Part shown: positions 3,081-58,076 of the stretch, in pieces
Layout of the letters: every line of letters starts with the position of its first letter
How positions within the stretch are numbered: position 1 is the stretch's first letter
Assembly (NCBI GenBank): GCA_039545335.1
Contig: BCIN01000003.1
Coordinates: forward strand, 1,178,001 to 1,242,000
Length of the DNA stretch: 64,000 nt
DNA from: Kondoa subrosea
Lineage: Eukaryota
Direction of reading: 5' to 3'
Notes under the pieces: model-generated
What the model was told of the DNA's origin: nothing
Databases searched by the model: none
What the model saw: only the letters and a program-made list of their open reading frames with translations
Position numbers and translations under genes: made by a program

Positions 3081-4769
3081 ATGGACAGCTTGGATCCAGC
3101 AGCAGTGGCCATACTAGGTCAGTCGCTCTCCAGCTGGCTAGGTCGGCTGGGCTGATCATAGGTGTTAGATGAAGAATGCTCTTCGGAGCAACACTTCTCC
3201 TGCAGGTCCAGCTCGCCAGAGCCTGTTCCTTTCCATTTCGATCTTCCTCCCGAACTGCTCATTCTAACCCTCACGTTCCTGCGTAATTCTCTGCTGGAAA
3301 CGACTTTACCTTCCGATGCTTGTCGAGCTCTCGTTCCATTCTCTTTGGTGTCTCGCAAATGGTTCGAGCTCAGCAGATCTCTCTCGCTGCAACATGTACG
3401 AATAGCGGCAAGCAAAAGTCATCGTTTATTGGCGATAGTCAATGCACCAAGAAGATGGGGAACTTCAATAATCAGCTTACAGATCTCTTTTGGCGAACAT
3501 TATCATGCAGGCTACACTTCCCACTTGATGAACATCCTCGCTTGCTGTACCTCTTTGCAATCCCTCAGTCTAAGACAAGTAGGCAAACCGGTTTCGAAAT
3601 CCTTCATCACTTCAGCTTCTTCGATACATTACTCTTACCTCCTAAAGCAAGTCTTTTCGAACCTCATATCACTAGAAGTTTGCGGCACTGCTAAAGCTCA
3701 ATCGACGGGCCTGGATGCAGCGAAACTCATTGGATTCTTATTACCTCTATGCACATCTTTGCAATCTCTGAAACGAGGTCACTATTCGTTCAAAAAAGAA
3801 CGAATCTCAGCATTGCAACCTATACCTACATACGCACTCTGTCCACCTCCTTCTTCACAATTACAAACAATCAGGTCGTTGACGCTTTCCGCCCAACACC
3901 TTGGCTCAAGAATCTTTCATCAAGCCATTCATCTTTGTTGTGCCAACCTGGAAGAATTAGTGATTCAAACTAATGAACCACCAAACCGACGAATTATAGA
4001 AGATGGCTTCTTTAAACTGCAACACTCTTTAAAAATCCTAAAACTCATCATTCCTTTCCCTACACATCGCTTACATCAAATAGTGGATCTGATTGGCTCA
4101 ACCAATTTCTTACCTTTTGCAAAATTGGAGAAATTGTATTTGAGTGGACCGATTTATACTGCAGCTGTTTTGAACAATTTGATCAATTTACCAAATTTGA
4201 AAGAATTGGGTTTGATGCATAGTCGAGTTCTTACTCCGAGGCACTTGGAAAGATACATGATCGCTTCATCAACGGAATTGACGGGTGAAAGAAAGCTGAT
4301 TCTGGATGATTTGAATGGTTTGGGTTGGAGTGAAGAAAGTTTGGGGGATTTGAAAGATTGCGGGAACAAGAATGGTTGGAGTGTGGAAGCATCAAGTGAG
4401 AATTGGAGACATACGAGAATCGGACAAGAGAGAGATCGGACTTGGTACCCCTGGATGGAAACTGATCTGATACATGTTATATCAGATGCAGAGGAGGGAG
4501 ATGGAGTGCAAGAGAGTAGAGAGACCGATGAAGAAAGTCAAGCGATCGAAGAAGAGTTACTGCAAAGGAGTCAACAGCCTCAACACTCTCAAATTAGCGA
4601 AGTTGGAACGAGTGAAATGTATCAAGAACAGGAGGCTAAAGAAGAAGATGAAGAGACTAGTGATTCGGATGCTTATTCAGAAGACTGGTCAGAAGAGCCC
4701 CGCTTTTCACCACAGCCTCAATTGAGAGTCCGAAGTAGAACGCCTCGCTTCTTCGATGTACAGGAGTGA
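3081..4769 (+). CDS. F-box-like / leucine-rich repeat protein with acidic tail
   Basis: 535-aa ORF with F-box-like start FDLPPELLILTL...LVSRKW and LRR-like repeats (LQSLSL, LISLEV, LEKLYL, LPNLKELGL). Probable short first exon from ATG 3081, intron about 3118-3168. Confidence 0.75.
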
Positions 4770-4891
4770 TATGTCAAGAAAGAGAAAAGGTTTACATCAT
4801 ATTTATCCATGCATTATATACTTGTATCTTCTGTACCAACTATAGAGCTTTGTACAAGGTATCTGCGCGTTCCTGCCGTTTCAATCCGAGC

Positions 4892-5272
4892 TTATGAGAT
4901 GCAGCATGGAATGGGACTGAATGATACAAATTAGCGGTCAGTCATAGCTAGACAGGAAGACTTACATGATCTGAACAGACAAGACCAGTGCTAGGTCAGT
5001 CCAAATCAACATAATTCCAGAAATAGTGTACCCAGCAGATAGAGCCGTCAGGGCAGGGAACGCATCCACCTGAAACGAAATTTCGACCATAGTCAGCATT
5101 TGCGCATCAAAAGACGGCAGTAGAGCTAGCGCTCACCTCGCAAGCGCATAGCTTCAGATGTTTCACTCTTTTCCAAGCTTTCTCTTGTCGCAGCCGCATC
5201 CTGCGCTACGCTGTCTCTCTTCCAGGCATGTTGCTGAGTAGCTTGAGTGTTCTCGATTTGAGCTGGAGCCAT
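4892..5272 (-). CDS. 67-aa small protein with internal RLRGG motif and Cys-rich C-terminal peptide (4 exons)
   Basis: Exons 5272-5137, 5069-5032, 4970-4966 and 4916-4892, joined by GT-AG introns with CTGAC/CTAAT branch sites, give MAPAQIENTQATQQHAWKRDSVAQDAAATRESLEKSETSEAMRLRGGCVPCPDGSICWIIPIPCCIS* (204 nt, in frame). Confidence 0.8.
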
Positions 5273-5451
5273 GCTAGTTTCGGTTGGATGGGTGTTTAGG
5301 AGAAAGTCAACGCAATGAGCTCATCTAGCCACCCTCATGGTCACGTGATTGTCTCATCAGTAGCGAAGTCCCATCCACTTTGCTCATCTATTTGAAGTAG
5401 ATGATGTACGAAAAAGTATAACTATTACTGCTAACTTACATGGCATTCTAA

Positions 5452-6174
5452 TCAGTTCCTCTTTTCGTTGGCAGCAATTTGATCAGCGCGGACTTGTAAA
5501 TCATTCAATGCTACCATATACGCCTTCTGTTGAGTACCATTAAGTGCACCGTTGGCAGGAGGAAAGACATTTGGACTTTTGTCTACCATTTCTTGGGCTG
5601 AAAATCGGCGTAAAATGGGAGTACTGAAGGAGTGCTTAAGAAAGCGCTTACGCGGGCGCTCATGGTCCTGATTAGCTCTCGACATAGGATGGAGCTCTTT
5701 GCCTAATGTGATCCAATGCTGGTTGTGATAGGTTTCTAATATAATCCTGGAATGCGATGAATCTGTATAGATTGATATCAGCTTGTGCCTATTCCCAAAG
5801 GGCATTCACTAACCAGGATGCAGCCCAGTATAGGTCTGCCGAGCCTCGATAAATTGCTTTTGCAGAAGGGTATTGTAACCGCGAGTTGAAGCATCAATAT
5901 TGTTCACTCGAGACGCATCGGCTTTGGCTCTAGAGATGGCATGCTCGTTGGCTAACGCCAAGCGACCCTCCAGATAAGCTTCTCTATCTTTATCATTCGC
6001 TAGAAACCGCGCTTTTAGCAAGGCTGAATGGTTCTGGTCACATCGCTCACATCCGGCGTATACCCATGGCGTCCTGAGACCGGCAGCGTGATCCAATTTT
6101 GCCTGAGCATGCCGAGTGGTACGAGGAGGAATGTAATCCTGCATGCCGCTTGGAGACGCAGTTCTGGAAGACAT
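5452..6174 (-). CDS. Hypothetical protein (~223 aa, 2 exons)
   Basis: Two in-frame ORFs joined by a 51-nt intron 5813-5763 (GTTAGT...GCTGAT...TACAG) that carries the TAG TGA stops. No family recognised. Confidence 0.6.
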
Positions 6175-6669
6175 CTATACTCTTTTATAGAGTTGGCCGT
6201 TGAGAAGAAGAAAGCAAATCAGAGCAGAAGATGAAACAAAGGCAAGAGAAGAATAACAAAACGGAGAGAAAGACGAATAATACAAAGGGAAGGAATTGCT
6301 ATTGTGCGTAAGACCCAATGCGAATGCATTCGAGACAGCAATATGCTGCAACCTGCATCAGGCCCCACTGGCGACTATCGATGTGGCAGCAGAAGACAAG
6401 TGTCCCATTTCTGCGTTAGATTCAGGCTAATTTGCGTCGCTTACCTCATGAGGTCAACGTCGAGGCTCCCGAGGCTGACTCCGCGTTTTTCGATGTTTTG
6501 CATAAATTGTTTCTTTCTCCCAATCTCACCTTGTGCGCAATTACCCTGCAATTACCCCTCTGCGGGCTGTCTATTACCTTGTTACTGGTATACCTACTAT
6601 TGGTCTTACCAGATAAAACCTCACTTTCCTTTCTCCCGTGCTTGGCTTCCACGCTCAACACTTCTGAAC

Positions 6670-22530: not shown

Positions 22531-23590
22531 TCAAGTAGATTTCCTTGCTTTCTTCTTCCCTCCCAATCCAGCTTGAATCCGATCAAACTCTTCATCTGTC
22601 GGCATAGGCATTGATTGCCTCTTAGCTTTCTTGTTTTTCTTGCCCTCTTTGACTTCTTCTTCCGATGCATGCTCTTCGGATGAAGCAGATGTTTTCCTCT
22701 TCTTGCTATTGTTTTCATTTGAAGCATATTTGGCTTCTAAGTTCGCCAACGTATTAGCCATTCTTGCTGCTCCTCTTTGCTGAATCAAAGCTTTCAATGC
22801 CTCTTCTCCATCTTCCTCCTTACTTTTCCCTTTGCCCTTCTTCGAAGTTCCACTTCCGTATAGCTTATCATGCACTCCTAGCTCTTTAGCTAAAGCTTCA
22901 GCTTCTCCTGCTTCTTTACTTGCTGCCTCCTTCCTCTTTGTCTTGCCTTTAGTATCTTTAAGCATCTTAGTCCAATTAGAAGTAGCTTTCAACTCTCCCG
23001 AAGCGATTGCGGAATTGATCAAAGAGGTGAATCGATCTTCTGCTGTGAGTGCATTCAGGGACATGACGTTCTCCAAAATGAAAGTAATGGATCCTTTTGA
23101 ATCTTTGTACGCTTTATATAAGTCTGATTTCTCTTCTTCAGAGTCTACTTTCCTAGTCAGTGTCTTTTCATCACGTAATTAGAGATAGTTGAGCATTACC
23201 CTGATAGGCAGCAAAGAAATCTTTAATGGATGTAGCGTTGACTTCGCCTTGCCAGAGTTCTCTGAAATAATCATCCCATTCTTCTCTTGTCTTCTTCCCA
23301 TCATTCAACCCACCATTCTCATCAGTCCTGCCGGTAGAATCGTAGCGTTCCTTTCGTTTCTCATCCGACAACACTGAATAAGCATAACCAATCTGTAGGA
23401 ATTTAGTCTTGCCTTGCTCTTGCTCTTCTGCAGTAGCCTTGGCAGACAATTTATCAGGATGATGCAAGAGTGCGAGTCTGCGGTAAGCTTTCTTAATTTC
23501 ATCTGAAGTTGCTTTCTCTGGTAAATTCAAGGCGGAGTAGAGATCATAGTCTTCAGTGTTGAAGATGGCTTCTGCTGGATCTGCTTCCAT
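22531..23590 (-). CDS. DnaJ-domain protein, DNAJC9-like (2 exons)
   Basis: J-domain EIKKAYRRLALLHHPDK, then WDDYFRELW...IKDFFAAYQ, KEAGEAEALAKELG, LKALIQQRG...LEAKYA and PTDEEFDRIQ as in the DNAJC9 family. Confidence 0.85.
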
Positions 23591-23647
23591 TGTGCGGCTA
23601 CTTGCGTTGAGAGAAGTTAGAGTGCAAGAAGAAGAGTCGCATAAACA

Positions 23648-23653
23648 ACGCGT
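23648..23653. promoter_or_regulatory. ACGCGT (MluI/MCB-like box) upstream of the DNAJC9-like gene
   Basis: Exact ACGCGT 58 nt upstream of the ATG in a 104-nt intergenic gap; a single hexamer can occur by chance. Confidence 0.3.
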
Positions 23654-23694
23654 AAATCAAAACAACGTAGGTGCCAGTGGCAATGTGCAATGCA

Positions 23695-26600: not shown

Positions 26601-29600
26601 GTGCTTCTGATTGCGGCGGAGCTTCGTCAACTTCATCAGACAAGGCTGTCAGGTGCTGTGGCACATCTGCAGGTGACCCCGCATACAACACTTCTCCAGC
26701 ATCCAGGGCGACAATATACGAGCAGATGGGCACAAGCAGAGAAACGGCGTGCGAGACCAAAATGCATGTACGATCCTGCATCAGAGGACCAGATAGAGCG
26801 GCTACGAGGTGTCGAGCAGTCTGGGCATCAACAGCAGCTATACCGGAGTATCAGAGCTGAGGCAAACAATGACATCTGTCGCTGACCTATTATATCATCA
26901 AGCAGCAGATGTTTCGCTGGACTATATAAAGCTCGAGCCAATGACAGTCGAGCTTTCTGTCCACCACTCAAAACAGTCCCGCGTTCCTGTACGTGGTATG
27001 AGATAGATACACGCAGTATATATGACTACTCACGCCGACTTCGGTTTGATCGCCTTCGGGAAATTGAGCAAGATCGGGTACTAAAGCACATGCTTGTAAT
27101 ACGTCTTGATATCTTTGACCATCCCTACGCCACGATGAGATTGTTGCGCAGATGAATGATCTAACAACCATACCAAGTTGATCCAAATGTAATATTTTCG
27201 CGCACTGTGTCACTCAGAAGCCAAGCGTTCTGCGAGCAGTATGCGAGAGAATCTTCTGCAGGTTGATCACTTTTCGTATTCTTGCGCCTAAAGATCGGTG
27301 AAGGAGAATGAACAGATCCCGCTGCAACATGAGTTTCGCCTAGCAGACTGAGGAGCAGCATAGTCTTGCCTGAACCGACTGGACCGATGATCAAGGAAGT
27401 TTTGCCGATCGGGAAGGTAAGGCTCTTTGCTGCTAGATGAAACTTAGGATTCGAGAGGTTAACTAGTACATCAGTCGAGGGATTCGGCTCTTCCCAGTCG
27501 AAAATCGCGTTCATACAGCCAATATGCGGCGATTCCTCAGTCTTGTGCGAGTCATTGAGGTTTGACCATTTCTCAGAGTCTGGTTCTGCCAGGAATTCTG
27601 CTATTCGGTTGAGGGAGACGTTGGCATTGAGCACATAGACGATTACGATCGCTGCAGTCAGATCAGTCCGATACACAAGAGGATTGACATGAAGCCGTAC
27701 AAAAGTTGCTAACGAGAACAGGAGTGGATAAGCAGATATTCCAAGCGCAATGTTTCAACTCACTCTGCTGGTGTTCGAATGATATTGAAGAGTGCTAAGG
27801 CAGTGAAAGCAGTGGCTGCATTCAACGGACGCTCAAGTAGGATGGTATGCACCCAGAAAGTAGCGGCGCTGATGAGCACAGATCCACTGTGTGATGAATT
27901 GAGTTTGTTATTGCAAAATGACATACAGGACAAACGGACCCTATCATAAAGACGTTCTGTATCGCTGTAGCCCATGTCCTTTTCAGTAACAGACTAAGCT
28001 CTTCCTGACGAGCTTGATGCAATCGGTTTGAGAAACTGTGCACCGAACAAATCTCTATATCAGTATCGACTGATACAGCAGATTGTCGGCGCACCTTTTC
28101 TGCCAAGCGAAGAATTTTACGACTCTGACTGCTTGAATGATCTCTTGCACCAAATGAAGACGCTTGTCTGCTGCAGCAAGCAAGCGTGTGGAATATTGCA
28201 GATAGATTTTGCTCACTGAGAAGTCCGATCAACAAAGAGCCCCCTAAGAGAGATTGACCACTTACGTCCACTTTGAATAGGTACTTGGATGAGCAGTACG
28301 ACTAATCCAGCTAGAGCAGAAATCCCTAGAAGCCTGAACAGCAAGACAACGGCCAAAGTAATCTGAACGAAAGTGGCAGGCCAGAGCATATACAGATAGC
28401 CAGCGATTTCGGATGTTCGATATACGTCGACAGACATCATGTTGGTCACTCTTCCTGCTCCACTACTCTTTGTCACATCATCACCTTCTTTACCTACAGC
28501 TCGATCTGCTCTTCTCAAAGTCTTTGCATAAATTTCACCACTTAGAATTCCCTTCAATTTGACAGATATCCTTCTTCCAATTATTAGAGTTTGACCCATA
28601 GCAACAGAAGAAACCATTTGCGAAGCAAACATCAGAACAGCATAAACGATTGCCAAATCTCTAGCAGTAGGATCTCGGTGTTTCTTGCTCAACGAATCCA
28701 AGATGAGTCTTAAGAAAATAGCAGGTCCAATTCGAGTTAGCGATTCAACCCATGCCCAAGCTTGTTGTTTCATCAATTCAGCTCTAAAGAACCAGATTAT
28801 TCTTGTTCTGAACGATCGACCTTGCGTCCATCCGCTCATAGTTCTGAAATTGTATAATGCTGTTGCTGGTTTCCCATCGGGCAGCACTTCGGGCGCTTCA
28901 ATCGCTCCTGTTGTTTTTGAGGCTCGATAAATCATAGGAGTGAGAAAGTCGTATGTTGCTAGCGAAAGAAGTGAGGCGGGCTTATATTCTGATGGTGCGG
29001 AATCAAGAGGAATTGCTCCACAACTAGATCTTGGACGAAGGAGCAGATATAGAATGTTGACTGTGAGACATGAAGTGATTGTGATTTGTATTGCAGTTGC
29101 AGGGTATTTGGAGCTAGAGGTATAGATGAAAGATCGAAGGCTGATGATGGCGCTTGTCCAGGCGAACAGATAGTAGGTAGTAATAACGTTGTCGATAGTG
29201 AAAGAGAGCTTTGATTCAGGCCGAAGCATCTTGTAACAGCATAGCAGTAATATACAGGTCTGACGGGCGATAAGTGATCATCAACTCAAGGAGCGAAACT
29301 GACGGACCCAAGCTACAATTGTAAGAATTCCTTCCCATTGATGGAGCACTATTGAACGTGCAACAAAGAGTCCCAGGGAAGCGATTGTAACGACAACTTG
29401 TATGGCATTATACCGACTATCTGTTGAATGCTGCGATTGAAGGTAAGATTCTATCGACAGTATGCCTGGACCAGAGCCATTCTGTTTTGCAATGTCACTA
29501 GAGTCAATGAAGCCAAGTGCCAGAGCTGAATCTTGAGCCTCTTGAGCAGCTACTGATCGAATGACTTCTAATTCTGCAGCTCGAACGGGATCATCTGGCA

Positions 29601-38860: not shown

Positions 38861-39046
38861 GTCAGAGTCGAGTCGCAGCTCGGGTCTTCGCGCTTCACTA
38901 GGTCCTAATGGCTAGAACCAAGGAGCCAGAGATATGTTTACAAAATTTGCAAGGGTATCGTTCAGGTTCAAGAGCTGTGCCATTTAATTCTGGATCCTTT
39001 GTCACTCAGGCCACCACTCGCCTTTCAACTAAGTAGCATCTTAGGG

Positions 39047-40003
39047 ATGAGTTATCCACCACCTCTATCAAGTAAAGCCAAAGGCAAACAGCGAGCTTCA
39101 TCATCAACAGAAATGCTTTACCTGAATATCAGATTCACCTCAAACATTCCTGATATTCTTGCTTTCCCTCTTATTGATCCTACATTATCATCCAGACAAA
39201 TCAAAGCACAGATCAGGGACTTGAGACCTGATCAGTTGAGCGAGAGGAGCTTGAAACTCATCTATCTTGGTCGAGTAGTAACGGATGGGATCTTACTCTT
39301 ACCTTGGCTTGAAGCGTTATTGGTTAGACAACAAGGAGTAGCTGGGGATGGCAATATGCAAGATATAGGACTGGAAGAGGAGAAAGCAAGGATAGCAGGT
39401 CGAACGAAGGAAACTGCTGTTTGGTTGATTTGTAATGTTGGTCAAGCTTTGGCAGAAGAAGAAGAAGAGGAGAAAGTGAATGGTGGAGAAAGTACGACGG
39501 AAGAAACTGTATCACAACCTAGACAAGGTTTCGATCGATTACTCGAATCTGGTTTCAGTCAAGATGATGTGAACAATATGCGTCGACAATTCCACGTTCG
39601 AATGGATTCAAGTAACGTAGAACATGGTCCTGTTGTGATCGATGACGAGAATGAGCATCAAAGAGCTTTGGAAGATCAATGGATTGAAGGCATGGGAAAC
39701 AGCGATATGTCTAATCTGAATGGTGATACAAGTGGAGAATATACCACGCTGCTCAAGGGACTGATCCTCGGCTTCATTTTCCCTATTATGCCGCTCTTCT
39801 TCTTCCGGACATCTCTGTTCTCGAAGCGGTTTCAGGTAAGTAGAACCCGATGAGAGCCGAACCTACAAGCTGAAGACATACCTAGATGGGTATTTTGACG
39901 GGCATGATGGTCAATCTAGGTCAGTTCGCGCACATTGGGCTCGACAACACGCGCTGAAGATGCCTGTATCTCAGGTTTTGCTGTAATACAATTATTGAGC
40001 TGA
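39047..40003 (+). CDS. DSC3: Dsc E3 ubiquitin ligase complex subunit Dsc3 (ubiquitin-like domain, UBA-like region, TM helices)
   Basis: SSKAKGKQRA, LKLIYLGRVVTDG, VWLICNVG, GFDRLLESGFSQDDV..MRRQFH, RALEDQWIE, LLKGLILGFIFP, then spliced MGILTGMMVNL. Confidence 0.85.
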
Positions 40004-47230: not shown

Positions 47231-49764
47231 CTACTTGTCTTCTATAACATCCTCTCTCTTGAGTTTGAGCTTTTGCGCTTGAGCTACTATTTCTGCCGAT
47301 TGATCATCAAGCAATACACCTGTTACGCGATAATCAGCTTGTATTCTAGTTAGTAGATAGAACGCACCTAGTCCCTCATTCTCTGCAAGTGATAAGATCT
47401 CCTGCAAAGTGACGAAACCATCGTGATCGATATCGAGCTTGTCAACCAAAACATCAATCTGATCTTCTGAAGGTGCATGTCTGATTTCGCGAAGGGCCTT
47501 CTTCAGATCAGCGAGGACGAGTTTACCATCTTCTCCTACGGCGATTGTATTCATCTTGTTACCAACTTCCGCGTCATCTATTCAACAATATTAGCTCGTT
47601 CCTTTCACCAATCATGCATGACCGACATTCTTCAAGCTGTTTGTCGACCTTTTGAATCATCGACTTGATCCTCTTGGCTAATCCAGAAACTGTCGAGTCC
47701 TTCTCTTCGGCGTCATCTTGAGTCTTTTGATTTTCTTCCATCAGTTTCTTAAGCTCTTCACGTTCTTGGAGTACACTAGATTTGGCTGATAGGATTGAAA
47801 GAGCAGCACCGAGCTCATCAATCTGTTCACTTGTCATCCGAACATCATCTGCTTCCTCGGCGTGTTCGATAGCAGCTTTGACCTATGAACACGAGAACAG
47901 AATGAGCCAAAATTTGGCATCACAAGACCTCATCTCACCTCTGATTCAGGAAGCATATCTTGAGCCTTCTCTTTCTCTTCTTCAGTTTTGAGTTTCTCAG
48001 CTTCTTCCTGTTTCGATCTTTCTTCCGCTTCGGCTTCTTCTTTTCTAGCAGCCCGATCATTGGCTTCCCTCTGTACAAGTAACACGGCTCCCCATCAGAT
48101 GAATCTGAAGTAATCCGCATTTCTTCGCACCTCTTCTTGCTCTGCCTCATCTTCAATAAGATCTTCTTGTTCTTCTAAGACCTCCAACTTCTTCTTGAAA
48201 TCATTCTGATCACCAGAGACTTCCATCTCCGTTTCGTTGAGCTGTGCAATTTGCATAATTCTCTATCAGTCTTCACGCTGAAGAAGAGAATTATGATCAA
48301 CGCACCAAAGCATCAGGTAAACTGCTCAAAGTATTTTTCAACGAGATAAGGTATCCATCCGTAGTATTAGCTTCATTGAAGGAGAAAGCTCTAGAAAGGA
48401 TCAAAAGAGTGCCACTCAGTTCTCGATGAAGATGTAGATCGATCCATTGGGCCAAGTTCTCGCGTTGTTTCTCAATAGGTACACCTGTTGATCTGATGGC
48501 TCGAGATTGACAAGCTGCTGCTAGTTCGGCATCTTGAAGTGATTCGATACCTTCTTCTTCAATCACCTGTGCGTCCGCAAAATATCGCTAAGCAATTACA
48601 TACTGACGGATATCGCAACCGCACCTTATCATCATCTCTGATCTTAGTCATACGAGCTCGAATAGTGTGACGCAAGAATTGATCCGTTCCATAAGCATTG
48701 ATATTGAGGTAGCTTTTACAAAGTATGGGCCTTGTACATCAGCGAAGGATCAAGATTGGCTTACCGACATAAGGATACAAGTTGCGGTCGAGATAAATTG
48801 TCCAAAGTCAAGTCATCCTCAAACAATCGAGCAGTCTTGACTATATCATCTGTTGAAGGTTGTTCACCAGTTGACCGGACCTGTCGGGTCGGAGTTGGTT
48901 CATCAGGATATACTGATTCACCATAGCCATCACCGACCTTTCGGAAGAACTCTTTGAATTCTGCTGAATTGACAATCTTGTTTGGCGATTTGACACCTGT
49001 TTCACGTAGTGTTTCTTGCAAGAACTTTGCCATTTCTATTCGGACCTTCAAGAGTTTCCTCTTCTTTTCGTCCTGTACGCAAACGTAGCTTCTAGATCAC
49101 ATCGATGTGAAGAAACAATCTGACGCACCTCTTTATATTTATCGGTGAATGTTGAAGGTAGCATATTTGGGAAGAGCTTGAGAGCGACAGGTAGTAGCAA
49201 TTCCATGAAAGGAATGAGTACGAAGACGGAGAAAGGTATAAGACGAAGTAAATCATTGGTCGTGCGCTTCAATTGACGTTGTTCTCTTCTGGTCAATCGA
49301 TTTCCTCTCATCAACCTGACCAACAATCTCGTACTGATCCTAATTTCTTTACCCAACAATCGAGTTCCATGCCAATAATGTAATGCTTCTTTCTTGACTG
49401 TAGCTTTGATCCGAGTCCAGCGAGAACCTTTGGGATCAGAGACCGGCCGAGTTAAACCAGATCTTTCGGCACTCTTCTCATTGCTAAGGTGTTTAGTAGC
49501 GACTACAGGTTTCGCTTCGCCTTGCTTTGCTATTTCTATCGATTCTTGCTTACTTTGAGGTTGCTTGACAATTGATGGAAGCGGAGGAGGGGGCGGTTGA
49601 GATGCAGCTGTAGTAGAAGTCTGTGTACTTTGATACCGAGCAGCTCTTGCAGACCAGGATGTCAAAGCAGGAGCAAAGAGGAATCGAGCATCTTGGTGAG
49701 GATTGGATGATCTTGCTGCTACACTCTTGTACAAGGAGCGTAAAGCGATAGCATGCAATGACAT
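47231..49764 (-). CDS. MDM38: Mitochondrial LETM1/Mdm38 family inner-membrane protein with C-terminal EF-hand
   Basis: Presequence; KEALHYWHGTRLL, LTRREQRQLKRT, IPFMELLLPVALKLFPNMLPSTF, LFEDDLTLDNLSRPQL; EF-hand loop DIDHDGFVTLQE. Confidence 0.95.
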
Positions 49765-51492: not shown

Positions 51493-53398
51493 TCACAAGA
51501 ACTGTAATCCTATTCCTACTTGGATGCCAGTTCTCGCTCCATCGCTTTTATGCTGTACTAAGGGTACACCTAAATTACATTCGAACCGTACTCCAGCTTG
51601 TCTGTAGATCAAGCCTACGCCTGCTGAGATGGAAGGTTCCGCTATTAGTTGTGTAAGGGTGTCTGTTTTGCTTTTGTCTGGCACGGATATTTCAGCTTTG
51701 TCAATGGAAATATTCGTAGGCAGCTCACTAGGATTCCAGGACATCAGATTACCGCCATTGAGGAAGAAATGCCCATTCACCGGCCAGTGAGGTTTGTAAG
51801 GGAAAGGAGTGAGTAAGCTGAGTCCAGCAGCGTATTGTAAATCTCCGCCCAGATAATCGCCTGTTCTTATTAATAAGGCTTGTGATCACACATCGGTACC
51901 AATTACTTACCATTATCTTTCGGCCCTAGATGATTTTGCTTGAATGATCGAACACTAGCTGGCCCGCCTAGCTGAAAGCGATCTGAAAAGAGTGATTCCT
52001 TGCCGAGCAAAGGGAACAGTATTCCAGATCTGAAGCCAAAGGACATCGACTGCCATAATGCATCAGCTACTAGTCTCATAGAACCCGATCGAAGAGCTCA
52101 CATAACCTGGATGCAGCGCCCTGCTAAGCTGACTTTCCATTTCAAACTTGACATGATCTGCGTCTCCACCTAGACCAGCGTATTCTTGTAAGAGCCGCAA
52201 GTATCGACCTCGTGTTGCTGCGAATGGATCGTCTCGAGTATCTGAGATAAAGGAATGCGATAAAGCGGATTTGAGAGTATGCCCAGCGGATTGTCGCATG
52301 CTAAGTCCAAGATGAGATGATGACATATGCTGAATGTTTCGACCTACGAAAGAGATGCGAAAGGTTCAAAGCCGTGCAGATGCCGTGCAACAGCCTCATA
52401 AGCGAATTCGTGATAACCAAAGCGAGACAGTGTCTTCAATCTCGCTTGAGCTCCTTGCAAAGATTCCCTACAGCTCGCGGAAAGTGTCAGGTCTCGATCT
52501 GTAGCGAAACCAATGACTTCTGCTCGGGTTGAAGGATCCGCCAGAACAGGTACATCGAGTTTGAGCTGGTAGTTTGATTTCGTTGTAGTACCGAAAGAAG
52601 CATTGCCCTCAATGAGCTCTCCTCCGCCGAAAGCGTTTCGAATGCGAGCTACACCTCCCTGAAGACGATTTCAGAAGTGTAGAGGCATTCAACAAACGAA
52701 ACTGACTGCACTGCCTAGTTCTCCGTTACCAATTTCCGTTGATACTTTGCCAAACAGCCTTGACGCTTCCTTGACGTTGAATACAAGATCTACATCGCCA
52801 TCTTGAGCCAACATGCCAGTACTATCTTCCAGCTGAACTTGAATGTCTGAAAAGATTTCAAATCTGGAAAGCTTGTCCGACAGCTTCCGCGTTCTCCGTA
52901 ACAGTTGCTGCAAAGTGATGGTCTCATCTTCTGAGTTACGCGGAGGATCAAGGTAAGGACTGCAGATGTTAGCTAGAAAGCCAGCTCGTGTATTCGTTGC
53001 GCCTTCAAAGCGGATAGCATTCAATCTGAGCTTAGTGTCTTTCTTCTCGGTGACCTAGAGCAAATGTATGAATCTGGATCCATCGCTTGTAATATGACCA
53101 AACTAACAACTTCCGACAGTCGTCTCGCATTCCTCTCGTATTCTCCCAGAAGCCTGCTTTCTATTCGCTCCTCGTGCCATCGTTTCTGACGCTCTGCTTC
53201 TTCAGGGCTGAACAGATCACTGTATGTACGTATTCGAGTTTTCGAACTTTCTGAATTGCTTGTGGGATTGCTTGATCCAGCTGCTGCTGGGGGATCTCCA
53301 GAGAAAGACTCGTTTCCGACTGGCTGAGCACTAGGTAAGCCGCTTCCTGTAGGCGCTGGATCGCTCGAAGTAGCTCCCAAAGTGGGTTGGTTGGTCAT
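51493..53398 (-). CDS. SAM50: Mitochondrial SAM complex beta-barrel subunit Sam50 (Omp85 family)
   Basis: POTRA-like EGATNTRAGFL, IRNAFGGGE, LKSALSHSFISDTRDDP, DRFQLGGPASVRSF, SAGVGLIY, C-terminal beta-signal IQVGIGLQFL*. Confidence 0.95.
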
Positions 53399-56731: not shown

Positions 56732-58076
56732 CTACTTCATACTCTTTGGCATTCCCTTCTCGTCTATCAACCCTTCCTCCCGACTCAATGTCCTCGGTCC
56801 ATCGCCAACTTCCGTATGTATGAATTCCTTGACGCTTCCTTCAGCCCAAACCGGGATAACTTTCTCATTGAACCCCTTTGCTAACTCTTCCTGTTGGCTA
56901 ATTTTGACTGTTTCTCCTTTTGATCCATACAAACCAAAGCGATCCAAGAAACTCGCTTGTGGGAAATACGTGTTGACGAGACTAACGATTCGTTTCATGT
57001 TTTTCGCTTCGGCGTAAATGACTGCGTTTGGTCCAGCGTCATAAGTATAAGCGGCTAACAATCCTTGACCGTTTGAAGTAGAAGAACGATTGAGTTCAGT
57101 GATGAGGGAAATGATGGATTTGGAAACATCGTTCATGTAGAAAATAGGTGGATCGGTATCGAGACAGCAAGCATGAAATTGATTAGAATCTTGCATTGTG
57201 ATTTCAGCAAACGTGTTGAAATCTTTTTCTTTGATGGCTTGAGTGATTCTCTCCATTCGGGCAGGAACGACGTTTTTGATTCGATGTTGTAATAAAGGTG
57301 AAGTAGCGACAGTTCTTTGCATACCAGCTGTTGAAGGCGTTCCTTTTTTCAAATCTGATACAACGCAAATCAATGCTTGAATTTCAGGCCAATGTTCTTT
57401 AGGCGCGACTTGGACAGCGAGCGAATCTGATCCGTCTGCTTTTTCACCCATTTGCCATGCTACAAAACCGGAAAAGAGGGAGCGACAAGCTGATCCTGAA
57501 CCTTGTCTCGCTATACGAGATAGTTCAGAAGCGGAAGAAGGGAGTTCAAAGAGGGATGCTAAAGTTGCTACCAGAGCAGCGAAACCTGATGCTGAAGAAG
57601 CTAGACCAGCTGCAGTTGGAAAGTTGTTTTCAGAGACTATATGTAGCCGTAGTGAGGATAATGGCTGTATTTGAATGAGCATTAAGCCCGCCGTGCGGGA
57701 GAGGGAAATAGCTACCTTGTCCTCTTTGCTTCCTTTCTGATCTTCCAATGCTTTCCTCAGCGCTCGCATTTCTCTCAAACAGTTTGCCATCCTCCCTTGT
57801 CCTTTCACCTCTTCCTCTTCTCCATTGAGCCATAGCCTGTCCTTGTCAAACGCCGCATCCGCTCGAATAGTCGTCTTGGAACGCAAGTGATCTTGAGATA
57901 GGGTGACAGATAAAGAAGAATTGGTAGGTAAGATGAGTTCTAGAGGTTCTCGCTTGCCCCAATACTTGATGACCGCTATGTTCTGCTCGAACACAAAAAA
58001 AATAGTCAACACTTGAAGAAACGCGACGGACATGCACTGAACTGACTACCGGTGCTGTGCAAGTAGCTTCATACAT
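56732..58076 (-). CDS. MVD1: Diphosphomevalonate decarboxylase
   Basis: MYEATCTAPV|NIAVIKYWGKR, SENNFPTAAGLASSASG, RQGSGSACRSL, DSNQFHA, AYTYDAGPNAV. Confidence 0.97.

Follow-up and report, generated by a model that had tools for sequence, protein, structure and literature searches.

The question raised by positions 4892-5272 of a 64-kilobase (kb) stretch of Kondoa subrosea DNA (contig BCIN01000003.1, 1,178,001-1,242,000; "the window", to which all positions below refer) is whether they hold a small protein gene and, if so, what becomes of its product, in which a conserved copy of RLRGG, ubiquitin's final five residues, stands in the unusual place directly before a cysteine. The original prediction had read here a hidden small gene of four exons, and its coordinates and letters matched exactly on re-inspection: exons 5272-5137, 5069-5032, 4970-4966 and 4916-4892 (minus), joined by script, give a frame of 204 nucleotides (nt) and 67 codons. 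The small gene itself is borne out, with exon 1, intron 1 and exon 2 backed by three homologous open reading frames (ORFs) elsewhere. Judged from sequence comparison, it appears to be a genuine, unannotated and lineage-restricted small protein gene with at least one intron, and we hold with good confidence that it is real. For the product we favour, with a probability of roughly 0.5, a lineage-restricted microprotein in which a Gly-Gly hinge joins a helix to a Cys-rich tail. Annotation has here passed over a conserved protein gene with some 200 coding bases and one intron or more.

Homologs of the leader

A word-indexed search with the exon-1 frame gave one candidate, which proved to be a homolog: P0002, of 79 amino acids (aa), 87% identical over 96% of exon 1 (E 7.7e-17; 1/1 candidates). 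When P0002 was searched with HMMER among 1,835,955,588 representative proteins, four proteins were obtained at E ≤ 0.001, P0002 itself included. P0003 (56 aa) matched at E 2.9e-08 and P0004 (71 aa) at E 4.1e-07, and the 974-aa tandem-repeat protein P0005 (E 4.7e-05) was set aside as spurious, its match being confined to a Cys/Trp-rich stretch. A profile made from the four-member family regained the same three homologs at E 5e-30 to 1e-25 (3 of 64 candidates), and within a scope of about 15 billion predicted proteins these three ORFs are the only relatives. The contig of P0002 is from Logan and measures 21 kb; those of P0003 (1.4 kb) and P0004 (0.5 kb) are from ENA. Each of the three proteins is the sole member of its own cluster and carries no name.

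All four members begin with a Met at the same place of the alignment, and 22 of the 46 leader residues of the window are invariant across them (Q10, QHAWKR 14-19, V22, AA 26-27, TR 29-30, LE 33-34 and EAMRLRG 40-46), the most conserved block of the family being EAMRLRGGC, where the helix meets the tail. The six changes in the leader with respect to P0002 look conservative. Since the open, Met-started frame is kept to about 60% identity, exon 1 can be taken as coding sequence. With A at -3 and G at +4, the ATG at 5272 (minus) stands in a strong Kozak context. A divergent leader followed by a conserved peptide had been foretold for homologs of this gene; the reverse is seen, with leaders that are 63-87% identical and with P0003 and P0004 unrelated to the window after GGCV.

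Searches at the DNA level gave no further members. A scan with the family alignment found no relative among 163 pattern-matched stretches from metagenomes, a scan of viral contigs found none among 48 matched stretches, and a degenerate pattern of the exon-2 peptide matched no stretch at all. The scan of prokaryote genomes matched 131 stretches, one of which passed tblastn (L001, 323-373). This is regarded as a chance match: it lies on a GC-rich contig labelled as a bacterium (a metagenome-assembled genome), and 11 residues, DSVAQDAAATR, are found in an unrelated frame without HAWKR and without RLRGG.

Nothing in Pfam or NCBIfam reached the curated cut-offs for the small protein, the ESM Atlas gave no known family (best score 0.79, to unnamed and uninformative clusters), and a search of window positions 4000-6500 against Rfam was empty at E ≤ 1. 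A full-text literature search for RLRGGC returned only unrelated papers. The best match of a profile search in the PDB, proteasome alpha-7 (E 0.021, 18 bits), extends over one helix and was taken as chance. On these comparisons the gene family is new: no described family was matched, and it is nameless wherever it is found.

Intron 1 and the RLRGG-Cys junction

Read without splicing, exon 1 reaches a TAG two codons past RLRG. Removal of intron 1 gives RLRGGCV instead, and the same peptide is found uninterrupted, as ...EAMRLRGGCV, in both P0003 and P0004. Because RLRGGCV is contiguous in these two relatives and arises in the window only once spliced, the 5137|5069 junction is confirmed by homology. 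Past the intron the frame is resumed as GT GGA TGC..., and the exon-2 peptide is GGCVPCPDGSICW. In P0002, ...MRLRG is followed by 14 unrelated in-frame residues; after these comes the 13-residue GGCVPCPDGSICW, the same as in the window, and six more residues without similarity lead to the stop. This alternation of identical and unrelated pieces is the pattern of exon-intron-exon-intron, with an ORF caller reading through an in-frame intron, and the 14 interrupting residues are probably P0002's own intron 1.

The expectation that RLRGG followed by Cys would be conserved holds in contiguous form for two of the three homologs, and the third is broken by those 14 in-frame residues. Going by these ORFs, at least three of the four organisms, and probably all four, have RLRGG-Cys as a real and conserved feature of their mature message. 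Exons 1 and 2 carry the marks of a spliced coding gene, namely an open frame in relatives, conservation of residues and a conserved peptide that is regained at the junction. The exon-1 homologs, the restored RLRGGCV and the exon-2 peptide kept in P0002 are therefore our reasons for considering the gene, intron 1 and RLRGG-Cys as real and conserved. The placement of the leader and the Cys-rich part on separate exons is likewise borne out by the sequence (Table 1).

In P0003 and P0004 there is no intron that splits the first Gly codon, and divergence sets in at once as Val-Ser... and Val-Cys..., respectively. This suggests an intron right after the Cys codon in these relatives, i.e. a loss or gain, or a sliding by about 8 nt, within the family. 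That intron 1 might have come from a tandem copy of exon 2 together with intron 2 was considered and rejected (local alignment score 18 vs a shuffle mean of 18.3, p 0.55).

Table 1. Features of the small gene and of its surroundings in the 64-kb window.
Feature	Position	Strand	Description
Exon 1	5137..5272	-	45 codons + 1 base; polar leader ...EAMRLR and first base of the Gly codon
Intron 1	5070..5136	-	67 nt, phase 1; GTGAGC, CTGAC, TTTCAG
Exon 2	5032..5069	-	38 nt; completes Gly and encodes GCVPCPDGSICW
Putative intron 2	4971..5031	-	61 nt; donor GTACAC (non-consensus), CTGAC, TGTTCAG
In-frame TGA	4996..4998	-	ends the protein if intron 2 is kept; ORF 4996-5106
Putative 5-nt exon	4966..4970	-	ATCAT; basis is only its place between acceptor-like and donor-like sites
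Putative intron 3	4917..4965	-	49 nt; GTAAGT, CTGAC/CTAAT, TTCAG
Putative exon 4	4892..4916	-	25 nt; ...PIPCCIS, then TAA
Palindrome TCACGTGA	5341..5348		E-box/G-box type; 69 nt upstream of the ATG
Upstream same-strand gene	5452-6174	-	two exons, intron 5813-5763 (donor GTTAGT), about 220 aa, no Pfam family
Convergent ORF	3162-4769	+	535 codons, acidic C-terminus; leucine-rich-repeat and F-box-associated matches weak, below cut-offs
Housekeeping genes by Pfam	22534-23656, 27164-29277, 38909-39850, 49051-49764, 51496-51885, 56735-58045		DNAJC9-type DnaJ protein, ABC transporter pieces, Dsc3, LETM1, Omp85/Sam50, mevalonate diphosphate decarboxylase

The leader and a possible cleavage after RLRGG

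According to the original prediction, the product would be a precursor in the cytosol that a deubiquitinase (DUB) cuts after RLRGG to release a peptide with an N-terminal Cys and a prenylated CaaX end together with a leader ending in GG. AlphaFold2, run on the 46-residue leader with a four-row alignment, gave a helix at 3-14 and another at 16-45 (mean predicted local distance difference test 76.7, predicted template modelling score 0.38), so that the leader is predicted to be one long alpha-helix. The beta-grasp of about 76 residues that precedes GG in ubiquitin was found in the leader neither by the AlphaFold2 model nor by Pfam, in agreement with the earlier statement that the leader has no ubiquitin fold (a single predicted helix and no Pfam ubiquitin match). 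The statement that there is no signal peptide also holds, the N-terminus being too polar.

Conservation of EAMRLRGG followed by Cys is the feature of the family that speaks for cleavage. Moreover, DUBs of the ZUFSP family (human ZUP1, S. pombe Mug105, and plant and insect members) are described as cutting the fluorogenic substrate RLRGG-aminomethylcoumarin (RLRGG-AMC) faster than ubiquitin-AMC, and they appear to accept N-terminally truncated ubiquitin (PMC8776766). As ZUFSP acts on bare RLRGG, an enzyme class that needs no more than this tail exists in eukaryotes, fungi included; and because these enzymes cleave the bare peptide very well, cutting by a DUB keeps a small probability. According to the same source, DUB classes other than ZUFSP need folded ubiquitin at their S1 site (PMC8776766), and this need of most classes argues against cleavage of a leader that is a single predicted helix with no beta-grasp. 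RLR, furthermore, is still within the predicted helix, whereas a DUB cleft accommodates the tail in extended form. The distribution of conservation is also contrary to a released peptide, the leader being the conserved part and the tail the variable one, and both a non-consensus donor and a putative 5-nt exon would be needed for the CaaX end. As for a freed leader acting as a modifier, we know of no precedent for E1 conjugation of a 47-residue helix.

Taken together, we consider it very improbable that a tail-only DUB of the ZUFSP/Mug105 type, or a ubiquitin C-terminal hydrolase, would cut the helical leader of this family after Gly-Gly to free a short, variable, Cys-first peptide that may be lipidated or metal-binding. 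The small protein resembles the ubiquitin-fusion precursors (ubiquitin-ribosomal proteins, polyubiquitin) in that RLRGG stands straight before another polypeptide and is conserved in the family; unlike them, it has no beta-grasp and carries a short Cys-rich tail instead of a ribosomal protein, and it is not a member of that group. The comparison with ZUFSP/ZUP1/Mug105 is of another kind: these enzymes hydrolyse bare RLRGG efficiently without folded ubiquitin, and one fungal member has been characterised, but their known substrates are ubiquitin chains, and a natural non-ubiquitin RLRGG substrate is not mentioned in the available part of the source (PMC8776766).

The RLRGG-Cys arrangement nevertheless raises the question of whether enzymes that recognise only the tail of ubiquitin have natural non-ubiquitin substrates. 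If true, the DUB route would be a cytosolic, ubiquitin-system-dependent maturation of a peptide, with neither a signal peptide nor a Kex2 step, and the mechanism would be categorically new; the support for it so far is the conservation of the motif. If there is no cleavage, the locus would add one more lineage-restricted microprotein with a Cys-rich tail, which is of modest interest.

A possible double-glycine leader before a variable core

A conserved helix ending in Gly-Gly and followed by unrelated sequence also brings to mind the logic of peptides that are ribosomally synthesised and modified after translation (RiPPs), in which a conserved, helical double-glycine leader would be removed from a hypervariable core by a protease yet to be named. 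In bacteria, such leaders are removed by C39/PCAT systems. The family fits in several respects, since the leader is conserved, P0003, P0004 and the window are unrelated after GGC(V), and Gly at -1 and -2, Leu at -4 and an invariant Glu at -8 relative to the cleavage point are present. The bacterial recognition pattern consists of Leu-12, Glu-8, Leu-7, Val-4 and Gly-Gly (PMC6363468), and it is fitted only in part, position -12 being S, G or Q and position -7 being Ala. C39 transporters are, in addition, bacterial, no tailoring-enzyme gene lies nearby, and the window has no C39 or peptidase-ABC gene, its only ABC pieces being about 22 kb off.

The "variable cores" of P0003 and P0004 would, besides, be explained more simply by intron read-through: the Val-Ser and Val-Cys that follow GGC can be written as GTNAGY and GTNTGY, i.e. 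as a donor of the GTNNGT type if Y is T. The likeness to bacterial double-glycine leaders (a conserved helical leader with Gly-Gly ahead of a peptide that starts with Cys, Glu in position -8 and a hydrophobic side chain in position -4) is set against a eukaryotic host, the misfits at -7 and -12 and the lack of a cognate transporter nearby, and we rate a RiPP-like processing as the least probable of the alternatives considered here.

Putative intron 2, the putative 5-nt exon and the C-terminus

Past exon 2 the structure is less certain. If intron 2 is kept, a stop is met 11 codons after the W, and the two-exon product ends in ...ICWVHYFWNYVDLD. If it is removed through the putative 5-nt exon, the 67-aa form ends in ...PIPCCIS. 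From the sequence we give about an even chance to the two-exon form, stopping at the TGA, with intron 3 lying in the 3' untranslated region (UTR) or being a chance match. The four-exon form is the more doubtful of the two, although it keeps an appreciable share, and what remains falls to some other C-terminal arrangement.

The original prediction had described canonical splice signals throughout. This fails for intron 2, whose donor GTACAC lacks both the +5 G and the +6 T. In fungi more widely, too, GTACAC counts as a non-consensus donor. For a local comparison, 14 short junctions were chosen by eye from 123 candidates between the long ORFs of the window, and their donors were GTAAGT, GTCAGT (2), GTAAGC (2), GTATGC, GTACGT, GTTGGT, GTCCGT (2), GTCGGT, GTGAGT, GTTAGT and GTAGGT. 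Every one of the 14 carries G at +5, followed by T or C at +6, in a set that was picked by eye and is partly circular, because GTNNGT was favoured in the picking. Donor positions +3 and +4 vary freely in these junctions, and the branch site is often CTGAT. An earlier set of local splice statistics, from ORF joins (222 candidates), was too noisy and was dropped. The P0002 frame continues after the W with Val-Ile, which is likewise unable to encode a +5 G.

In favour of the four-exon form, the similarity between the window and P0002 ceases exactly at the W, with GT next in both, and a CTGAC branch site and a T-rich CAG acceptor are properly placed in putative intron 2. Putative intron 3 is like the other short introns of the window; the combination GTAAGT, CTRAC and YAG is found twice in the window, this intron included, vs 1.4 expected in shuffles. 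Very small exons are on record in fungi: in C. cinerea an internal exon of 15 nt or less occurs in 1,165 gene models and one of 3 nt or less in 89 (PMC12230235). On the other hand, filamentous fungi had no described functional microexons until 2024, as stated in PMC11121469. Introns 2 and 3 were also considered as a nested stwintron and this was rejected, no new splice site being made by the removal of either.

A 56-codon ORF in another frame (4962-5132, minus), hydrophobic and membrane-helix-like, runs across intron 1, exon 2 and intron 2, and via intron 3 it also runs into ...PIPCCIS. As a part of the gene it was rejected, since exon 1 offers it no in-frame join and no family was matched.

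The CaaX rule places a Cys fourth from the C-terminus, with an aliphatic a2 and X drawn from S, M, A, Q or C. The putative end C-C-I-S would fit it, provided that splicing makes use of both the GTACAC donor and the 5-nt exon. However, across its six frames the window has 9 cases of Cys-aliphatic-aliphatic-X-stop vs 9.9 in shuffles, and because CaaX followed by a stop is at chance frequency, the CCIS end carries no weight on its own.

It is on this end that a comparison with fungal mating peptides would depend. The product could be an a-factor-like lipopeptide pheromone, or another CaaX-processed exported peptide, that is farnesylated at CCIS, trimmed, methylated, cleaved N-terminally and exported. 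Genes of the a-factor type encode fewer than 100 aa, are usually unannotated and have CaaX as their sole strict feature (PMC10569646), and the locus resembles them in being tiny and unannotated, with a polar N-terminal extension and, in the four-exon model, a CaaX-like end. At 67 aa with CCIS it would fall within this description only where GTACAC serves as a donor and the 5-nt exon is included. The same source describes putative Leotiomycete a-factors of 45-64 aa, mostly with a CTVM end, a GY motif near the end and a conserved C-terminus (PMC10569646). Neither the GY motif nor the C-terminal conservation described there for Sordariomycetes and Leotiomycetes is seen here: the small protein ends in CCIS and not in a CTVM-type end, has no GY in its tail, is conserved in its N-terminal part and would hold five Cys in its mature part, and its CaaX is putative and, as a pattern, at chance frequency in the window. 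A pheromone is thus very unlikely, if marginally less so than a DUB-cut precursor.

A proposed microprotein working at full length

The reading that we prefer, a microprotein that keeps its helix and tail together, would need no cleavage. Its product would be cytosolic and would work at full length; a stay in the cytosol is inferred because there is no signal peptide. The conserved helix may then serve as the binding part or interaction surface, with Gly-Gly as the hinge, and the hydrophobic, Cys-rich tail may provide membrane anchoring by S-acylation, with farnesylation in addition should CCIS be the true end, or else it may form a small metal site. RLRGG would on this account be a conserved hinge, or a basic patch beside a lipidated Cys, and no cleavage site. 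The Cys/Pro-rich hydrophobic tail is seen in two close relatives, the window and P0002. A comparable design is that of the G-protein gamma subunits and the Ras-type CC-aaX ends, which share a helix of about 45-70 residues, a flexible linker and a C-terminal Cys near basic residues, but the small protein has no sequence match to any such family in Pfam, NCBIfam or the PDB.

Several points weigh against this reading. The family is tiny, with four members counting the window, and each relative is a single-member cluster from one contig. P0003 and P0004 are wholly divergent after GGCV, which means either that the tail is not conserved family-wide or that these two ORFs enter an intron there. The proposed function, localisation and lipidation are all read from composition alone. 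Finally, the ATG lies merely 180 nt past the stop (5452) of the upstream same-strand gene, and the small ORF could be translated from a 3' extension of that gene with no transcript of its own.

The last point leads to the possibility that there is no independent functional gene at all, but a conserved piece of the upstream 3' UTR or a functionless downstream ORF in which splice-like signals arose by chance. The short spacing and the very small family agree with this, and so does the fact that relaxed intron-like patterns in the window are barely above shuffles (48 vs 36). Against it stand the open frame that starts from the same Met in four organisms down to about 60% identity, with its 22 invariant residues and conservative-looking changes, as well as the exon-2 peptide kept in frame across an intron, the strong Kozak context and the palindrome TCACGTGA upstream. 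This perfect palindrome falls within the 180-nt gap and is present as a single copy in the window, where 0.96 would be expected by chance; it may serve the small gene as a promoter element and would fit a promoter of its own. We therefore consider a non-gene unlikely, even though it is the least improbable of the rival explanations.

Genomic neighbourhood

The stops of the small gene, in its four-exon form, and of the convergent ORF are 123 nt apart, so their 3' UTRs must overlap. Pfam detected no significant domain in either the 5452-6174 gene or the 3162-4769 ORF, and a GTAAGT lies 13 nt past the stop of the former (5439).

Among 51 further long ORFs of the window, 11 have Pfam matches, all of housekeeping types and the nearest about 17 kb off: a DnaJ of the DNAJC9 type, pieces of ABC transporters, PAS, Dsc3 (a subunit of an E3 ligase complex), LETM1, Omp85/Sam50 and mevalonate diphosphate decarboxylase. 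On the same Pfam survey of the long ORFs there is no biosynthetic cluster around the small gene, nor do its neighbours point to a function. Farther along the window, the minus strand carries at 485-1405 a Ser-rich ORF with one membrane segment, which scores 26.6 bits against the ErbB1 transmembrane-juxtamembrane model (cut-off 27.1 bits); because of the membrane segment and this near-cut-off score, it is probably a single-pass surface protein.

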